From NCBI GenBank assembly GCA_028864875.1, contig JAGWLV010000001.1, positions 8,288 to 72,287 on the forward strand: a DNA stretch of 64,000 nt. Reading direction: 5' to 3'. The notes beneath the pieces are model-generated. The model ran no database searches. It was not told the origin of the DNA and worked only from the letters and a program-made list of their open reading frames with translations. Below are positions 55,978-60,995 of the stretch, piece after piece; within the stretch, counting starts at the first letter, position 1; every line of letters starts with the position of its first letter. This stretch comes from Patescibacteria group bacterium. GTDB lineage: Bacteria; Patescibacteriota; Minisyncoccia; Phycocordibacterales; SBAW01. The translations under genes and the position numbers were made by a program.

Positions 55978-56009
55978 AACACATGACAAGTCAGGTGACT
56001 ATGACGCGT

Positions 56010-56095
56010 CTATATTTTTCAACGTATTTTTAGCGTTCGGTTCGAGACCATGACGCGTCATGTGTCTCAGTCTCGAACCGCAAAAGAAAAATTAC
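56010..56095. repeat. Palindromic att-like site (ggttcgagac-catgacgcgtcatg-tgtctc..cgaacc) with duplicated TGACGCGTC motif
   Basis: Imperfect inverted repeat around a central CATGACGCGTCATG palindrome, adjacent to the serine recombinase gene 3' end. Confidence 0.45.
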
Positions 56096-56118
56096 CCGGC
56101 GAGGTGATTTTTCTTTGG

Positions 56119-57411
56119 CTACTCCATCGTCACTTTCTTGTCTTTCAGGAATAACTTGCTCTGCAAGCATCCAAGCAATTCCCGTTTCTCTACCAGGGTT
56201 CCTTCCCTGAGCAGGTACTTCGTGTAATTCCGAACGTCCACGTCTATCTCGACTTTGTCCTGCTTGTGCCCGAGTACTCCTGACTGAAATTTGTTGAACC
56301 GCCGTATTTCTTCTTCGATCCGTGTCCGTACTCCCAACTCATCCAAATTTACCGTATCCATCAATCCAATTAGTTCATCAATCAGGCTCGGCTCGTTGAT
56401 CGGTGGATTCTTGCAATCGATATTCCGAGCCTTTGTGCAGAAGTAATATACATGGCGATTCACACCGCCACTCTTGAGCTTCTTGAATTTTTCGTCAGCT
56501 GATATACCCGAGCCGCAGTAGCCGCATCGCACGAGCTTGGTGAAGGCGAACTCCTTGCTCTCGGTTTTGGGTATGAAATTTTCGTTGAGCGTCATCTGTA
56601 CCTTCTCATACAGCTGTTTGTCGATGATTGGCGTATGCTTGCCGGTGTACCATTGACCACCCCCGACCGGGTATTCAAATTCACCCGAGTAGAAGGGGTT
56701 CCGCAGAATGACGTAGACATTCGCGAGCACGAGCGGTTTTCCTCCCGTTGTTTTGAAGTCAATCTCTCGGAGCCATCGGTATACTTTCCGTCCGCTCCAC
56801 TGTTCGTGCGCTACCTTCTCGAACATCTGTTTGATCACAGGCGCGCGCTTTGGGTCGATCCGGCACTGACATTTCTTGTCGACATGCTTTTCATTGAGAT
56901 ACCCAGTCGGGGCAGGGCCGGGCCTCCAACCCATCTCGCATCGTGTTCTCAGCCCGCGCTTCACGTTTACCGCCTTGTTGTCGTTTTCGAGCTTCGCCTG
57001 CGAACCCAGAATCATTAGTAGGAATTTTTCGTTCGGATTGTTTGTGAATCTCTGTCCGTATGTACGGATTTCATGGAGTAACTTTTGGTCCATCAGGTCC
57101 ACGACTGACCCCAGGTCACCGGCATTGCGACTCAGGCGATCTGGTGCCCACGTGAGTATTGCGTTGAACTTCTTCGACCGGATATCCTCCAACATTTGGT
57201 TGTAGACCGGACGTTGGCCGACCTCTTTAGATGAGTGGGCCTCACGCTTAATCTCGACAATATGCAAACACTCTCGCTCGGCTAGCGCCTGCATTTCTTT
57301 CACCTGGCTCTCGATTGATAATGCTTGCTTATCTTCCGCCTCAGTACTTTTGCGTGCATAGAGGCAGTACCGTAAGGCCTCCTGTGGTTGTGTTTTTTCC
57401 ATACACCACAA
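56119..57411 (-). CDS. Large serine recombinase (phage-integrase type)
   Basis: Resolvase catalytic domain YARKSTEAE...SIESQ, recombinase domain, C-terminal zinc ribbon CGYCG...YYFC; 430 aa; AT-rich codon usage. Confidence 0.9.
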   Translation of the reverse strand: MWCMEKTQPQEALRYCLYARKSTEAEDKQALSIESQVKEMQALAERECLHIVEIKREAHSSKEVGQRPVYNQMLEDIRSKKFNAILTWAPDRLSRNAGDLGSVVDLMDQKLLHEIRTYGQRFTNNPNEKFLLMILGSQAKLENDNKAVNVKRGLRTRCEMGWRPGPAPTGYLNEKHVDKKCQCRIDPKRAPVIKQMFEKVAHEQWSGRKVYRWLREIDFKTTGGKPLVLANVYVILRNPFYSGEFEYPVGGGQWYTGKHTPIIDKQLYEKVQMTLNENFIPKTESKEFAFTKLVRCGYCGSGISADEKFKKLKSGGVNRHVYYFCTKARNIDCKNPPINEPSLIDELIGLMDTVNLDELGVRTRIEEEIRRFNKFQSGVLGHKQDKVEIDVDVRNYTKYLLREGTLVEKRELLGCLQSKLFLKDKKVTME

Positions 57412-57927
57412 GGAATGACGCCACCCTCCTGAGGAGTCCAGGACTCCTCAGGAGGTGGAAGTAGATAACATTTGACTCCTCAAGGAAGCCCTATATACTT
57501 GGGGTATGAGTCTACCGATCCCTAAAGAGCCGACCGACGTCAAAGATTGGATCCACCGGATTGAAGGAATGGGAGGTAAGTCTGGTGAGATCAATTGGGA
57601 TTCTCTGAACGTTTGGTACGGGAACAAATTGCCACAATACTTGTGGAATGAATGGAAGGACTCACTCAAACCCTCAGGAGGGTGAGCTCCGCCTCAACTC
57701 GCGCTTGCTTAAGGCGCTTCACAAATATTGCTCGTTCATTGGTATGAATGGACTTCTTCATACCTATAAGCCTGTATTCCGTATTGGGATATTCCAAAGT
57801 GGAATATCCCATGCTATGCTTGAAATGGCCCCGTTAGGGCACTGTTGGTAACTCCGCTTCGCAAGGCCTTGAAACTAAGTTAGGAAACACAAAGTCAGTC
57901 TTTATTAGCTCATATTTAGTAAGTGCT

Positions 57928-58740: not shown

Positions 58741-58754
58741 AACTTTCTGCTGCA

Positions 58755-59648
58755 CTACAACGACTTCGAGTACGCGTCCCAGTCAATGTCTCCGTTCGGC
58801 TTTTTGAAGTACTCAAGGATTGCGGCCCGTTGCGCTCGCTCTTTGATCTCCGCCTCTTCGCGCTCCTTGCGTTCCTGCTCTTGTTGGTACAGGGCAATGT
58901 CATCTCTAATAGCCTGTAGACGCATGTAGTTATTGTTGCGTAGTCCTTCGGGCAACATATCAATTACCTGGCGCACGTCATCAGGCGAAAGCCGGTCCAA
59001 CTTCGGCCCCGCAGCGTCACGCTTCTCTTTGATGCGCTGGGCATAATCGAGCCAGAGCTTTTGGCTTCGTAGATTGCCACCTCGAGCTGAGGTGTAGATC
59101 TCGCCAAGTACGTCACCGGTCTTGAAGATGATCCAGTCTTCTCGGAGCGCGGCGACACGTTGCCCGAAGTCTGCACGTTGTGCCCAGGCATCGAGCAATC
59201 GTAGGCTCGGAACGCCGTACATCTTGCAGAACTGCTCGCGCGTTTGAACGCCGCGCCAGGAGCGCTCTTCGGGCGTGAGGGCGCTCCAAAGCACGAACTG
59301 CTCATACGCTTCGGCATCAGAGAGTATCTCTGGCACCGGGTGCATAGAGGCGGGTTCCGACCGTTCAGGAGCTTTCTTGTAAGGAGCTACGTTGTGCTCA
59401 AGGTAGTACCTGATAAGACGGGAGTCGCCCTCGCTGATCTTCTTGAGGAACGCCGCCGATACACGGTCGTCGGTCGTATCTTTGCCGGAGCGCCGGGCCG
59501 CGTCCGCCTTCTTGTGGAAGTCGAGGTCGCTCTTGTAGTGGCGATCGTAGAACATGCGGGACACACCCGCTCGCTTGCAGGCGACCGTAATGGTGTGTCC
59601 TTCGGCGAGGGCACTGAGAAGTACCGATACCTGATCATGCTTGTGCAT
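58755..59648 (-). CDS. HTH-domain protein resembling phage terminase small subunit / DNA-binding regulator
   Basis: N-terminal HTH ALAEGHTITVACKRAGVSRMFYDRHYKSD, second HTH-like region, Glu/Arg-rich C-terminal coiled coil; 14-nt overlap with MTase gene. Confidence 0.45.
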   Translation of the reverse strand: MHKHDQVSVLLSALAEGHTITVACKRAGVSRMFYDRHYKSDLDFHKKADAARRSGKDTTDDRVSAAFLKKISEGDSRLIRYYLEHNVAPYKKAPERSEPASMHPVPEILSDAEAYEQFVLWSALTPEERSWRGVQTREQFCKMYGVPSLRLLDAWAQRADFGQRVAALREDWIIFKTGDVLGEIYTSARGGNLRSQKLWLDYAQRIKEKRDAAGPKLDRLSPDDVRQVIDMLPEGLRNNNYMRLQAIRDDIALYQQEQERKEREEAEIKERAQRAAILEYFKKPNGDIDWDAYSKSL

Positions 59649-60498
59649 GGATCTTTACGCGCTTCTTACCAGAGAACTTTTCCCAGCGATTGAGGATGAC
59701 CTCGGCGTATGTTGGGACCTTCTCCATGAGGAAGCAGCGCCTGCCGAGTGTGTTGGCAGCGATGAGCGTCGATCCACTCCCGCCGAAGGGCTCAATGATG
59801 AGCTGCCCGCGTTTGGTGAGCGTCTTGACGTAGGGCAAGAGAATTTCGATCGGCTTCACGCCATAGATGATCGCTTGCCCAGACGACTTCTCATCAGCGG
59901 CATTGAACTCGATGAAGTCCGTTGGACAGTACTTCTTGTTCTTGCCGTAGTTCTCCCAATGGGAACCTTTGCCTTGGATCGCGAAGAGTGCGGTCTCGTA
60001 CTGGTTCTCGTACAGCCCATCCTCGGGCTCAAGATTGAGGCCACTGTGCTCCTCGCTCGTGCCTACCATCGCAATGTCGTGTTTTGAAAACAAGACATTC
60101 TTGCCGGCATAGCCCTGATTCCTCGTGGGTAGGTGCCAGACGATCATGTTGCGTACCTTCCAACCCTGCTTCTCGATGACGTCCCACTGCTCGCGGATGT
60201 TGCGCCAGTTTTCGTAGGAGATGATGGAGAAGTCCCTGTTGGCAACCCTAGCAACATTACCCATCCACTTTTCAACGAAGTCCGGCGGCAGTTCCTCGGT
60301 CTCGAGGTATCGGCGATTTCTTTTTGCACCGAAGCCGACGGTGGGGTTGCCGTTGCGCGTTTTGCCCTTCAGGTAACTGAGCCGGTACGGCATGTCAGTC
60401 ATGCACATGTCCGCTTTCTCATCACCCATGAGCAGAAGCACGTCGGCTTCGGCGGTTGAGTCGCCGCACATGAGCCGCGACCCGTCGAGGTCGTACAC
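59635..60498 (-). CDS. Beta-class DNA amino-methyltransferase (N6-A or N4-C), orphan
   Basis: Motif IV TDMPY (DPPY variant) precedes motif I EPFGGSGST, the beta-class order; ParB-MTase-like N-terminus; GTG start. Confidence 0.8.
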   Translation of the reverse strand: MYDLDGSRLMCGDSTAEADVLLLMGDEKADMCMTDMPYRLSYLKGKTRNGNPTVGFGAKRNRRYLETEELPPDFVEKWMGNVARVANRDFSIISYENWRNIREQWDVIEKQGWKVRNMIVWHLPTRNQGYAGKNVLFSKHDIAMVGTSEEHSGLNLEPEDGLYENQYETALFAIQGKGSHWENYGKNKKYCPTDFIEFNAADEKSSGQAIIYGVKPIEILLPYVKTLTKRGQLIIEPFGGSGSTLIAANTLGRRCFLMEKVPTYAEVILNRWEKFSGKKRVKIHAQA

Positions 60499-60785
60499 GT
60501 CGCCCTTCTTTACGGTGATCTGATCTATCTTGAGTTTGTCTAACTCCTTTTCGAGGTCGAACTGTTCTTCCGTTTTTTCGATCTCGAATACCGAGACAGT
60601 CAGCAGTCTAGTTTAGTATCGAAGGACCTAGAGCCGTATGGTTGGTCAGCTGTGGCGTATGGGAGTAAACTTCATTTATGAAATCCGATCCGAGAGGCTC
60701 AATCTGGCGAAAGTGGGACCTGCAGGTGCACGCACCTTTGGGTAAACTTTATGATGGGTACAAGACTTCCGACGGCTCGGATCCG

Positions 60786-60995
60786 CTAGAGGAAGTAGCT
60801 GACAGGTTTTCCGTAGAGCTTTGCAAGGCGATTGAGCCAAATAGCTTCCACCCGCAACTCACCAAGTTCTACTTTTGATACCCAAGACTGCGAACACCCA
60901 AGTTTTTCAGCTACCTCTGCTTGTGTCAGGCCGGCTTCGACTCGTGCTTTTTTGAGTTTTCCAACAAAGACGGTTCGCTCATGCGACTGGCGCAT
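60786..60995 (-). CDS. XRE-family HTH transcriptional regulator (Cro/C1-type)
   Basis: LTQAEVAEKLGCSQSWVSKVELGE helix-turn-helix; 69 aa. Confidence 0.7.
   Translation of the reverse strand: MRQSHERTVFVGKLKKARVEAGLTQAEVAEKLGCSQSWVSKVELGELRVEAIWLNRLAKLYGKPVSYFL

Follow-up and report, generated by a model that had tools for sequence, protein, structure and literature searches.

A probable decayed mosaic remnant of a serine-recombinase island family at tRNA-Gln in a Patescibacteria genome

Introduction

In a 64-kb stretch of contig JAGWLV010000001.1, which belongs to a metagenome-assembled genome (MAG) of a Patescibacteria group bacterium of Paceibacteria/Parcubacteria type, a tRNA-Gln gene is followed by about 5 kb of DNA encoding a large serine recombinase, a membrane-anchored surface protein, a helix-turn-helix (HTH) protein reminiscent of phage small terminase subunits (TerS), a DNA methyltransferase (MTase) and an HTH protein of the XRE family. 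Is this a complete and compact mobile element, as an initial annotation had proposed, or is it what remains of something larger? Throughout, we refer to the whole 64-kb stretch as the window, all positions are positions in it unless a comparison locus is named, and labels such as L051 denote comparison loci fetched for this analysis. Based on the comparison with these loci, we propose with a probability of roughly 0.8 that the interval represents the decayed, mosaic remains of a member of an island family of Patescibacteria, the islands of which are inserted 3′ of tRNA-Gln by a large serine recombinase. The copy in the window is probably immobile. Gene movement among the reduced genomes of Patescibacteria (candidate phyla radiation, CPR) is poorly understood.

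Horizontally acquired DNA between tRNA-Gln and a host gene

The gene order dus-dnaX-tRNA-Gln is kept in more than 30 relatives, and the content downstream of the tRNA gene varies among them. In the nearest relatives, the gene for the SpoU-family RNA methylase that forms the right host flank in the window is located 5-5.5 kb away from tRNA-Gln, and the gap is filled by housekeeping genes unlike the genes of the window; in other relatives, the gap consists of 0.5-8 kb of unrelated genes. A metagenome contig (L108) shows the order dus-dnaX-...-tRNA-Gln, with the start codon of SpoU only 33 nt behind the tRNA gene. Because of this short distance in L108 and the unrelated genes in the gap of other relatives, we conclude that the DNA from 55979 to ~61000 is horizontally acquired and inserted at tRNA-Gln. 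The search for an empty tRNA-Gln site, suggested as a check in the initial annotation, was successful in part: the empty arrangement exists in L108, but this is a distant relative (SpoU identity 48%), and a clean empty site is absent from the 37 nearest species-level genomes, in which other genes fill the interval. No close strain was found (best SpoU identity 65%), and exact-sequence look-ups of the window recombinase and SpoU gave no match.

The tRNA gene, the sole match of the Rfam scan, and the five listed open reading frames (ORFs) all lie where the initial annotation had placed them, but the gene list was incomplete: a 68-aa gene (orf68) and a truncated small gene had been overlooked. 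The reported drop in GC content after tRNA-Gln is real as well. The claimed interval has a GC content of 0.525, compared with a mean of 0.579 ± 0.033 for 1-kb windows over the 64 kb. The deviation exceeds two standard deviations (SD) only on the recombinase side (55979-57927; 0.489), and the part from the surface-protein gene to the MTase gene (57928-60592) has a GC content of 0.556.

The recombinase is intact. It contains the domains Resolvase (PF00239, 3e-20, residues 17-161), Recombinase (PF07508, 3.5e-14) and Zn_ribbon_recom (PF13408, 1.1e-07) and matches the integrase family phrog_95 (E 7.5e-64), so that the 430-aa protein is rightly called a large serine recombinase. Compared with P0022, the representative of a 134-member cluster, it shows 91% identity over the full length with a single 1-residue gap, and the catalytic motif YARKSTEAEDKQ is conserved in P0022, too. 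The true start is likely the ATG at 57402. The recombinase family comprises more than 120 cluster representatives at identities of 78-91%, and their MAGs are labelled Nomurabacteria, Parcubacteria, Staskawiczbacteria and Paceibacterota, whereas the DnaX protein of the window is at most 74% identical to that of any species representative.

In four further host contexts, a close relative of the recombinase is encoded next to tRNA-Gln or no more than 2.5 kb away from it. The recombinase of L051 is 91% identical, has the same orientation and immediately adjoins tRNA-Gln(ttg)-dnaX-dus of a host with a DnaX 55% identical to that of the window. In L060, a 90%-identical recombinase abuts tRNA-Gln(ctg), and three cargo genes separate the 84%-identical recombinases of L053-56 from tRNA-Gln(ctg), at a distance of 2.5 kb. 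The recombinase is absent from the tRNA-Gln site of all 37 species-level relatives. From this patchy distribution and an identity exceeding the one seen for housekeeping genes, we deduce by sequence comparison that the recombinase family is mobile between genomes in a site-specific manner. This result agrees with the original suggestion of horizontally acquired DNA at tRNA-Gln with the large serine recombinase as its integrase, the relatives at or near tRNA-Gln being 84-91% identical in hosts with DnaX identities of ~55%.

One of these relatives, L029 (11772-19500), has an unrelated large serine recombinase (528 aa, 32% identical) directly after tRNA-Gln, its 3′ end overlapping the tRNA gene. 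It is followed by a 254-aa ORF with an HFHALF (HUH-like) motif, and an MTase homologue is located ~5 kb beyond. Given this island, the tRNA-Gln hotspot is shared by at least two lineages of recombinases.

A conserved junction motif next to tRNA-Gln

At every occupied site, the 3′ CCA of tRNA-Gln is immediately followed by a conserved motif (..AAGTCAGGTGACT..). The sequence after CCA is ACACATGACAAGTCAGGTGACTATGACGCG in the window, CCATATGCTAAGTCAGGTGACTGACACGCA in L051 and TCATATGCTAAGTCAGGTGACTGAGACGCA in L053. The motif directly follows tRNA-Gln in L051, L053-56 and L060; in L084/85 it is found 2.8 kb past the recombinase, still after GCAGCCA and beyond genes of a diversity-generating retroelement (DGR). 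It is absent from ~30 unoccupied tRNA-Gln sites that we examined. The core of the motif, AGTCA-GG-TGACT, consists of two inverted-repeat arms that flank a dinucleotide. Sites of serine recombinases are short, imperfect inverted repeats about a central dinucleotide and lack long direct repeats, and direct repeats were not found here. We regard the motif as a candidate attL, and integration would have occurred by action of the recombinase at this conserved motif 3′ of tRNA-Gln.

The att-like palindrome described in the initial annotation exists (CATGACGCGTCATG, 56049-56062), but it is a different sequence from the conserved junction motif. It lies within the second of two hairpins that follow the recombinase stop codon, and the hairpin sequence of the window is not conserved. 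Because L051 and L053 carry other hairpins at the same position, the structure holding CATGACGCGTCATG is most simply explained as a terminator or stability element, and it probably serves as such at the 3′ end of the gene. We therefore rejected CATGACGCGTCATG as an att core, since it is unconserved in sister elements and sits inside a terminator-like hairpin.

A second att-like site or tRNA-Gln 3′ fragment that could represent attR is absent from the window, and such a search gave only a chance within-element match in L038. Scanning the viral contigs with the att motif revealed one unrelated match in a coding region and no attP, and a terminal-repeat test for circular forms was negative for all 17 short contigs. 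As no far-end site was found, precise excision would no longer be possible.

Two further observations concern the surroundings of this motif. DGR genes (RVT_1 reverse transcriptase, bAvd) occupy 12245-13625 of L084, between recombinase and att-like motif, and DGR genes also lie beside the element in L051 (5918-6331). In two unoccupied loci, L003 (11583-11620) and L005 (complement), the sequence after tRNA-Gln, A[C/G]TCGTG[A/C]TAGGTTATC..GAGA, bears a weak resemblance to the junction motif, which might reflect an attB-like site or a scar left by a related element.

Architecture of the sister elements

The islands share a common layout. The att motif is located at tRNA-Gln, the recombinase gene points toward the tRNA, and it is followed by a small divergent gene, the cargo, and an XRE gene that is divergent from a surface-protein gene. 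After the 68-aa gene, a phage-derived far block follows in intact relatives, consisting of a gene for a fusion of a ParB domain and an MTase (ParB-MTase), sometimes a second MTase gene, a gene for a TerS-like protein and often one for the large terminase subunit (TerL).

In all 13 fetched loci that encode a homologue of the 297-aa HTH protein of the window (HTH297), its gene is preceded by a gene for a 444-447-aa fusion of ParB_N and N6_N4_MTase, with the same 14-nt overlap. The 297-aa gene is followed by the antisense 68-aa gene, a gene for a variable membrane protein and an XRE gene (L039, L044), and the serine recombinase is found 5-9 kb further, past defence-like cargo (L038, L044, L047, L049). 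This cargo includes large AAA_11/AAA_12 helicases with DUF2779, an Eco57I-type protein with SNF2/PLD, and a combination of SNF2, MTase and ResIII; type I restriction-modification (R-M) systems, GmrSD and helicases resembling Mokosh or PDC-S37 also occur as sister cargo.

A broader backbone set comprises 24 IMG/VR contigs and the 804-kb contig of L084. Here the order is ParB-MTase, often a second MTase, and a TerS-like protein of 131-224 aa. In 16 of 19 loci, the TerS-like gene is followed by an overlapping ORF of 476-534 aa and then by cargo and recombinase; in every case tested, this ORF was called as TerL (phrog_38, E 1e-71 to 1e-78). Copies of the 183-aa surface protein of the window (Mem183) with 96-97% identity are found in L086 and L087, which show the layout XRE / Mem183 -> orf68 <- TerL <- TerS <- MTase <- MTase and carry metal-resistance cargo beyond the XRE gene. 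In L086 (11224-14282), two tandem TerL paralogues (519 and 497 aa; phrog_38, E ~1e-71 to 1e-76) follow the TerS-like gene. Genuine temperate phages such as Streptococcus phage Javan124 also show the order ParB-type MTase, second MTase, terS and terL, which points to a phage origin of this block, and full-length ParB-MTase fusions are found in 219 phage records. The phage MTases are only ~28% identical to those of the islands. In phages, portal, head and tail genes come after the block, whereas the islands continue with a recombinase gene, cargo or host DNA.

Truncated genes and deletion junctions in the window

Measured against this layout, TerL and cargo are missing from the window, and several genes are incomplete (Table 1). 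The initial annotation had described a beta-class MTase without restriction partner, and this is correct: PF01555 (N6_N4_Mtase) matches at 2.5e-16, the TDMPY motif at residues 34-38 stands ahead of FGGSGS, no nuclease-like ORF is present in 55979-61000, and the MTases of the sister loci are orphans, too. As a whole gene, however, it does not hold up. The window MTase corresponds to residues 130-447 of the 447-aa ParB_N-MTase of L038 (98% identity), the ParB_N domain of this fusion type (PF02195+PF01555) is missing, and nucleotide homology ends sharply at 60592/60593, with the ParB domain and everything beyond gone. In L038 (~3190-3240), L047, L044, L049 and L039, the region upstream of ParB-MTase contains TTGACAAG/TTGATAAG repeats beside a DnaA-box-like GTTATCCACAG, and a conserved 47-58-aa ORF is also located upstream of this gene in intact elements. 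The repeat region could be an origin or operator region; both it and the small ORF are absent from the window.

A second truncation is found next to the recombinase. The palindrome/promoter region upstream of the recombinase is conserved in L038, L047 and L051. The small gene next to it matches residues 8-82 of an L049 protein with 64% identity (tblastn), and this homology stops at ~57673. From 57680 on, the sequence is homologous again, here to an XRE gene on the opposite strand, of which the first ~27 codons are left (XRE_A; MKKSIHTNERAIFVKRLKQARVEAELT); its native divergent promoter and Mem183 come next. Because homology jumps from the small gene (~57673) to XRE codon 27 (57680), we conclude that the cargo slot and the body of the XRE gene were deleted. 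The truncated small gene lies between the two copies of a perfect 13-nt inverted repeat (CACCCTCCTGAGG / CCTCAGGAGGGTG; 57422-57434 and 57672-57684). The left copy belongs to the 15+15 palindrome and the right one falls on the deletion junction; possibly, the repeat marks a site of secondary recombination.

The Cro/C1-type repressor that the initial annotation placed at the far edge (XRE_B) is indeed an XRE-type HTH protein, but it is a fragment without N-terminus and promoter of its own. It shows 86% nucleotide identity to the XRE gene of L044, beginning at about codon 5, and its start codon is 11 nt from the SpoU ATG. Since it is just 66% identical to XRE_A across their 58-nt overlap, XRE_B derives from a different element lineage. 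The 193-nt segment between MTase and XRE_B is possibly a cargo-side remnant of this second element. The remaining sequence is a mosaic as well: 57680-58712 is closest to L087 (88.5%) and 58477-60592 to L038 (90.5%).

Table 1. Features of the tRNA-Gln locus and its flanks (positions in the 64-kb window).
Feature	Position	Strand	Evidence and remarks
tRNA-Gln(ttg)	55905-55978	+	Integration target, left host flank; ARAGORN; Rfam tRNA 62 bits
Candidate attL / element-side arm ACACATGACAAGTCAGGTGACTATGACGCGTCTA	55979-56012		Core AGTCA-GG-TGACT; conserved after tRNA-Gln at occupied sites
Two tandem hairpins after recombinase stop	56026-56119	-	RNA fold, dG -39.5 kcal/mol, z = -4.95
Large serine recombinase, intact	56119-57402	-	Listed ORF to 57411; Pfam, PHROG, P0022 alignment
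Perfect 15+15 palindrome, operator-like	57425-57455		Between recombinase and divergent small gene
Promoter-like site	57472-57499	+	Follows the 15+15 palindrome
Truncated small gene	57455-57685	+	ORF orf59 = 57506-57685; 5′ part of ~106-130-aa L049 gene beside recombinase
Internal deletion junction	57673-57680		L049 homology ends ~57673; L087, L039 and L044 homology begins at 57680
XRE_A remnant, first ~27 codons	57680-57761	-	Alignment to L044 and L039 XRE genes
Native divergent promoter region, XRE / surface-protein gene	57762-57927		70-88% nucleotide identity to L039, L044, L087
Mem183, 183-aa membrane-anchored surface protein	57928-58479	+	AlphaFold 2, Foldseek; variable 'moron' slot
orf68, conserved 68-aa protein	58534-58740	+	Ends PPPPHQLSLF; 77-82% identical in L038, L039, L048, L086, L087
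HTH297, two tandem TerS-type (phBC6A51-type) HTH modules + coiled coil	58755-59648	-	HHalign, PHROG, AlphaFold 2/Foldseek
5′-truncated N6/N4 MTase	59635-60592	-	287-aa ORF from GTG 60498; homology upstream to 60591; ParB_N deleted
193-nt segment	60593-60785		Matches none of the fetched loci, as nucleotide or protein sequence
XRE_B, 69-aa XRE-family HTH	60786-60995	-	Pfam HTH_31, HTH_3; native N-terminus and promoter replaced
SpoU-family RNA methylase, host gene	61007-61747	+	Right host flank; Pfam SpoU_methylase 1.9e-40

A possible history of the locus

With at least three truncated genes (MTase, small gene and XRE_A), a repressor from another lineage and the tRNA-side junction as the only recognisable one, the proposal of a compact and complete element does not stand. 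We consider it very unlikely that the interval is a ~5-kb satellite or minimal integrative element bounded by att sites and with all genes functional. Such an element would account for the intact recombinase, HTH297, Mem183 and orf68, and the closest recombinase relatives, L051 and L060, are compact and lack TerL, too; minimal satellites with an integrase and TerS are known (PMC9618062). It would leave unexplained why the MTase lacks a ParB domain that is found in all 13 sister loci, why small gene and XRE_A are cut at one common junction, and why XRE_B has neither promoter nor N-terminus of its own and stems from another lineage. The conserved region upstream of ParB-MTase and a second att-like site are missing in addition.

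A chimeric assembly, in which co-occurring element variants were joined at 57673-57680, 60592/60593 and 60995-61006, would likewise produce a mosaic. The sequence comes from a MAG, its segments are closest to different sisters, and related elements are abundant in metagenomes. Yet no long repeat that could mislead an assembler is present at the junctions, the XRE pieces are only 66% identical, and host DNA is syntenic on both flanks, so that we regard this explanation as highly improbable.

For the decayed remnant that we favour, the most likely history would begin with two related elements residing in tandem at the tRNA-Gln hotspot, which were later eroded by deletions. Through one deletion, the locus would have lost its cargo together with the 3′ end of the small gene and most of the XRE gene. 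A second event would have taken away the far end of the element and, from the MTase, the ParB domain, and XRE_B, as a fragment of the second, diverged element, would now be fused next to SpoU.

Several points weigh against this interpretation. Recombinase, Mem183, orf68, HTH297 and the catalytic domain of the MTase are intact and 91-98% identical to sister copies; decay would therefore be recent, and some functions may persist. A history of two tandem elements requires three deletions, and other paths are possible as well. Since the window is part of a MAG, its junctions are those of a metagenome assembly. The available strains are at most ~75% identical at the protein level, and the empty site is known from a distant relative. 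Finally, the missing attR is absence of evidence, and since serine integrases leave no long direct repeats, a cryptic far-end site could have escaped detection.

The TerS-like protein HTH297

HTH297 belongs to a rare family of 21 proteins. Its description as TerS-like in the initial annotation is supported in both halves of the protein. Residues 2-97 are homologous to the TerS-like proteins that directly precede a clear TerL in sister elements (HHalign 98.7%, E 1.6e-16), and for residues ~113-255, matches were obtained with 118 representative proteins (stand-alone, 170-250 aa), members of which hit terS PHROGs and the phBC6A51-type HTH (HTH_Tnp_1_2), in one case above the Pfam gathering threshold. 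HTH297 itself matches terS PHROGs at 1e-4. In the AlphaFold model (predicted local distance difference test score, pLDDT, 70; predicted template modelling score, pTM, 0.34), two small domains of helices precede the long helices at 161-211 and 234-280. Foldseek returned domain-level matches only, to 2ao9, Sf6 gp1 and viral TerS models of BFVD; full-length fold searches gave no significant match, and a PDB sequence search with HTH297 and TerS-like profiles yielded nothing useful. By these comparisons, HTH297 is a tandem of two TerS-type DNA-binding modules that fills the slot of TerS and TerL.

No TerL is encoded in the 64-kb window or in any HTH297-type locus fetched, and a TerS-like gene beside TerL is confined to those sister elements that encode the short form of the protein. 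The C-terminus of HTH297 was considered as a possible TerL remnant and rejected, because no similarity was found. Since the window contains no TerL, HTH297 cannot be a canonical terminase alone; it either works with the TerL of a helper or is a DNA-binding regulator. The gene overlap noted earlier is real in size and reversed in direction: it is the 3′ end of the MTase gene that overlaps the start of HTH297 by 14 nt, both genes being on the minus strand with the MTase upstream.

Mem183, orf68 and a possible defence function

Mem183 was correctly described as membrane-anchored. A transmembrane helix (residues 15-31) and a disordered Pro/Ala-rich linker are followed by a C-terminal beta-sandwich (residues 90-183, AlphaFold 2 pLDDT >90), for which Foldseek found the C-terminal jelly-roll of Tk-SP (E 2e-4). 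The modelled beta-sandwich thus resembles protease C-terminal or carbohydrate-binding-type modules. Other elements hold different membrane proteins in this slot, and by analogy, it would be like a prophage moron under a repressor-divergent promoter.

The C-terminus of orf68 reads PPPP(H/Q)QL(S/R)LF, followed by a basic tail, in all five copies compared. QL[SD]LF is a binding motif for the beta sliding clamp. From its sequence, orf68 may be a clamp-binding protein of the element.

A role of the locus as a defence cassette had also been suggested. In this case, the orphan MTase, the HTH protein and the membrane protein would form an anti-phage system with the recombinase as its mover. The defence-like cargo of the sister elements fits this idea, but the cargo slot is deleted in the window, and the MTase-TerS block is of the type found in phage packaging regions. 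PADLOC found nothing for Mem183, HTH297, orf59 and orf68 and only generic MTase/HTH matches for the others. The tool offers no support for a defence cassette, which we consider extremely improbable.

Other observations at the locus and in the window

Three more patches in the window have a GC content more than two SD under the window mean (8800-10500, 24700-25900 and 40400-41800), the first of which is located near a cluster of tRNA genes (tRNA-Val, tRNA-Ser, tRNA-Glu). On the left host flank, a gene for a 393-aa ParB_N-like protein (53600-54781, +; PHROG ParB-like partition protein, E 1.4e-15) lies between dus and dnaX. These two genes are 13 nt apart in L001, and tblastn (E 1e-5) detected no homologue between them in the 37 relatives. 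The gene may be a separate small insertion.

Nature of the island family

Judged from its gene content, the family looks satellite-like, combining integrase, repressor, packaging genes and cargo with no recognisable structural genes. The original view of an integrative, satellite-like element applies to the family in this respect, but the copy in the window is a remnant, and its repressor genes are fragments. No ORF of the window or of the sister loci matched structural phage families. In up to 10 kb on each side of five loci (L084, L086, L087, L073 and L064), we found helicases, R-M systems, metal-resistance genes and host genes, and no structural match; a scan of the viral contigs with HTH297 returned nothing. 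Primase or replicase domains, as expected for a replication module, were found neither among the window ORFs nor identified in intact relatives.

The family would have spread by packaging into phage particles through its TerS/TerL genes. One might go further and see in it undescribed phage satellites or self-packaging islands that have their own MTase-TerS(-TerL) block and no capsid genes, and that would use helper capsids to reach very distant hosts together with their defence or metal-resistance cargo; HTH297 would then be a variant of TerS that recruits the TerL of the helper. We offer this as a tentative idea and regard it as rather doubtful.

Ordinary temperate phages, with the window as a prophage remnant, would present a related picture if their structural genes were too divergent or located outside the sampled flanks; the MTase-TerS-TerL block would then open a normal late operon. 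The gene order of the block agrees with that of Streptococcus phage Javan124, 24 contigs with recombinase relatives are classed as viral by IMG/VR, and profile libraries cover structural proteins of Patescibacteria phages poorly. However, past the TerL-sized ORF of the 16 out of 19 loci, cargo and recombinase are found, or the orf68 and surface-protein genes in L086/L087, but not a portal gene. The flanks of the five loci lack any structural match, and the closest relatives lack TerL. We therefore consider it unlikely that the family is made up of ordinary temperate phages.

While the locus itself is a wreck, it points to an abundant and unusually conserved recombinase family (78-91% identity, with housekeeping proteins of the hosts being ~50-70% identical to those of the window). 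Its close members share the tRNA-Gln target, the junction motif, phage-type packaging genes and a slot for defence or metal-resistance cargo. We found no description of this island family in the searchable literature. If the islands are active, they would be one of the main ways by which CPR bacteria acquire genes horizontally and exchange defence systems. They would also provide site-specific large serine recombinases, the target of which is conserved and can be predicted.

Comparison with known systems

Phage-inducible chromosomal islands (PICIs), including the Staphylococcus aureus pathogenicity islands (SaPIs), encode tyrosine integrases and primase/replicase genes and carry an origin. The islands described here differ from them by a serine recombinase in place of the tyrosine integrase, by a frequent TerL of their own and, in the window, by a TerS-like protein that is a 297-aa double HTH. 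What both share (PMC9618062) is an integrase, a repressor and a TerS homologue able to redirect packaging, in addition to a similar size and accessory defence genes.

The PICI-like elements (PLEs) of Vibrio cholerae and module 3 of the VEIMEs are serine-recombinase phage satellites (PMC9618062). They resemble the islands in being small, in having a large serine recombinase and packaging-related genes but no structural genes, and in carrying defence cargo. They differ in that PLEs enter V. cholerae repeats (VCR), and a ParB-MTase-TerS-TerL block is not reported for them in the text read of PMC9618062. By analogy with these satellites, the islands might depend on a helper phage for induction and encapsidation; a replication module was not identified in them.

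The staphylococcal cassette chromosome elements (SCC/SCCmec) are islands that are inserted at the 3′ end of rlmH, a conserved housekeeping gene, by large serine recombinases and carry swappable cargo; often they form tandem or composite arrays or persist as remnants after erosion. They use rlmH as target and contain a helicase/primase-type replication module, in contrast to tRNA-Gln and the MTase-TerS-TerL block of the family described here. The likeness is one of working principle and lies in the use of a serine recombinase, the single conserved chromosomal target, the cargo slot and the tandem or eroded arrays.

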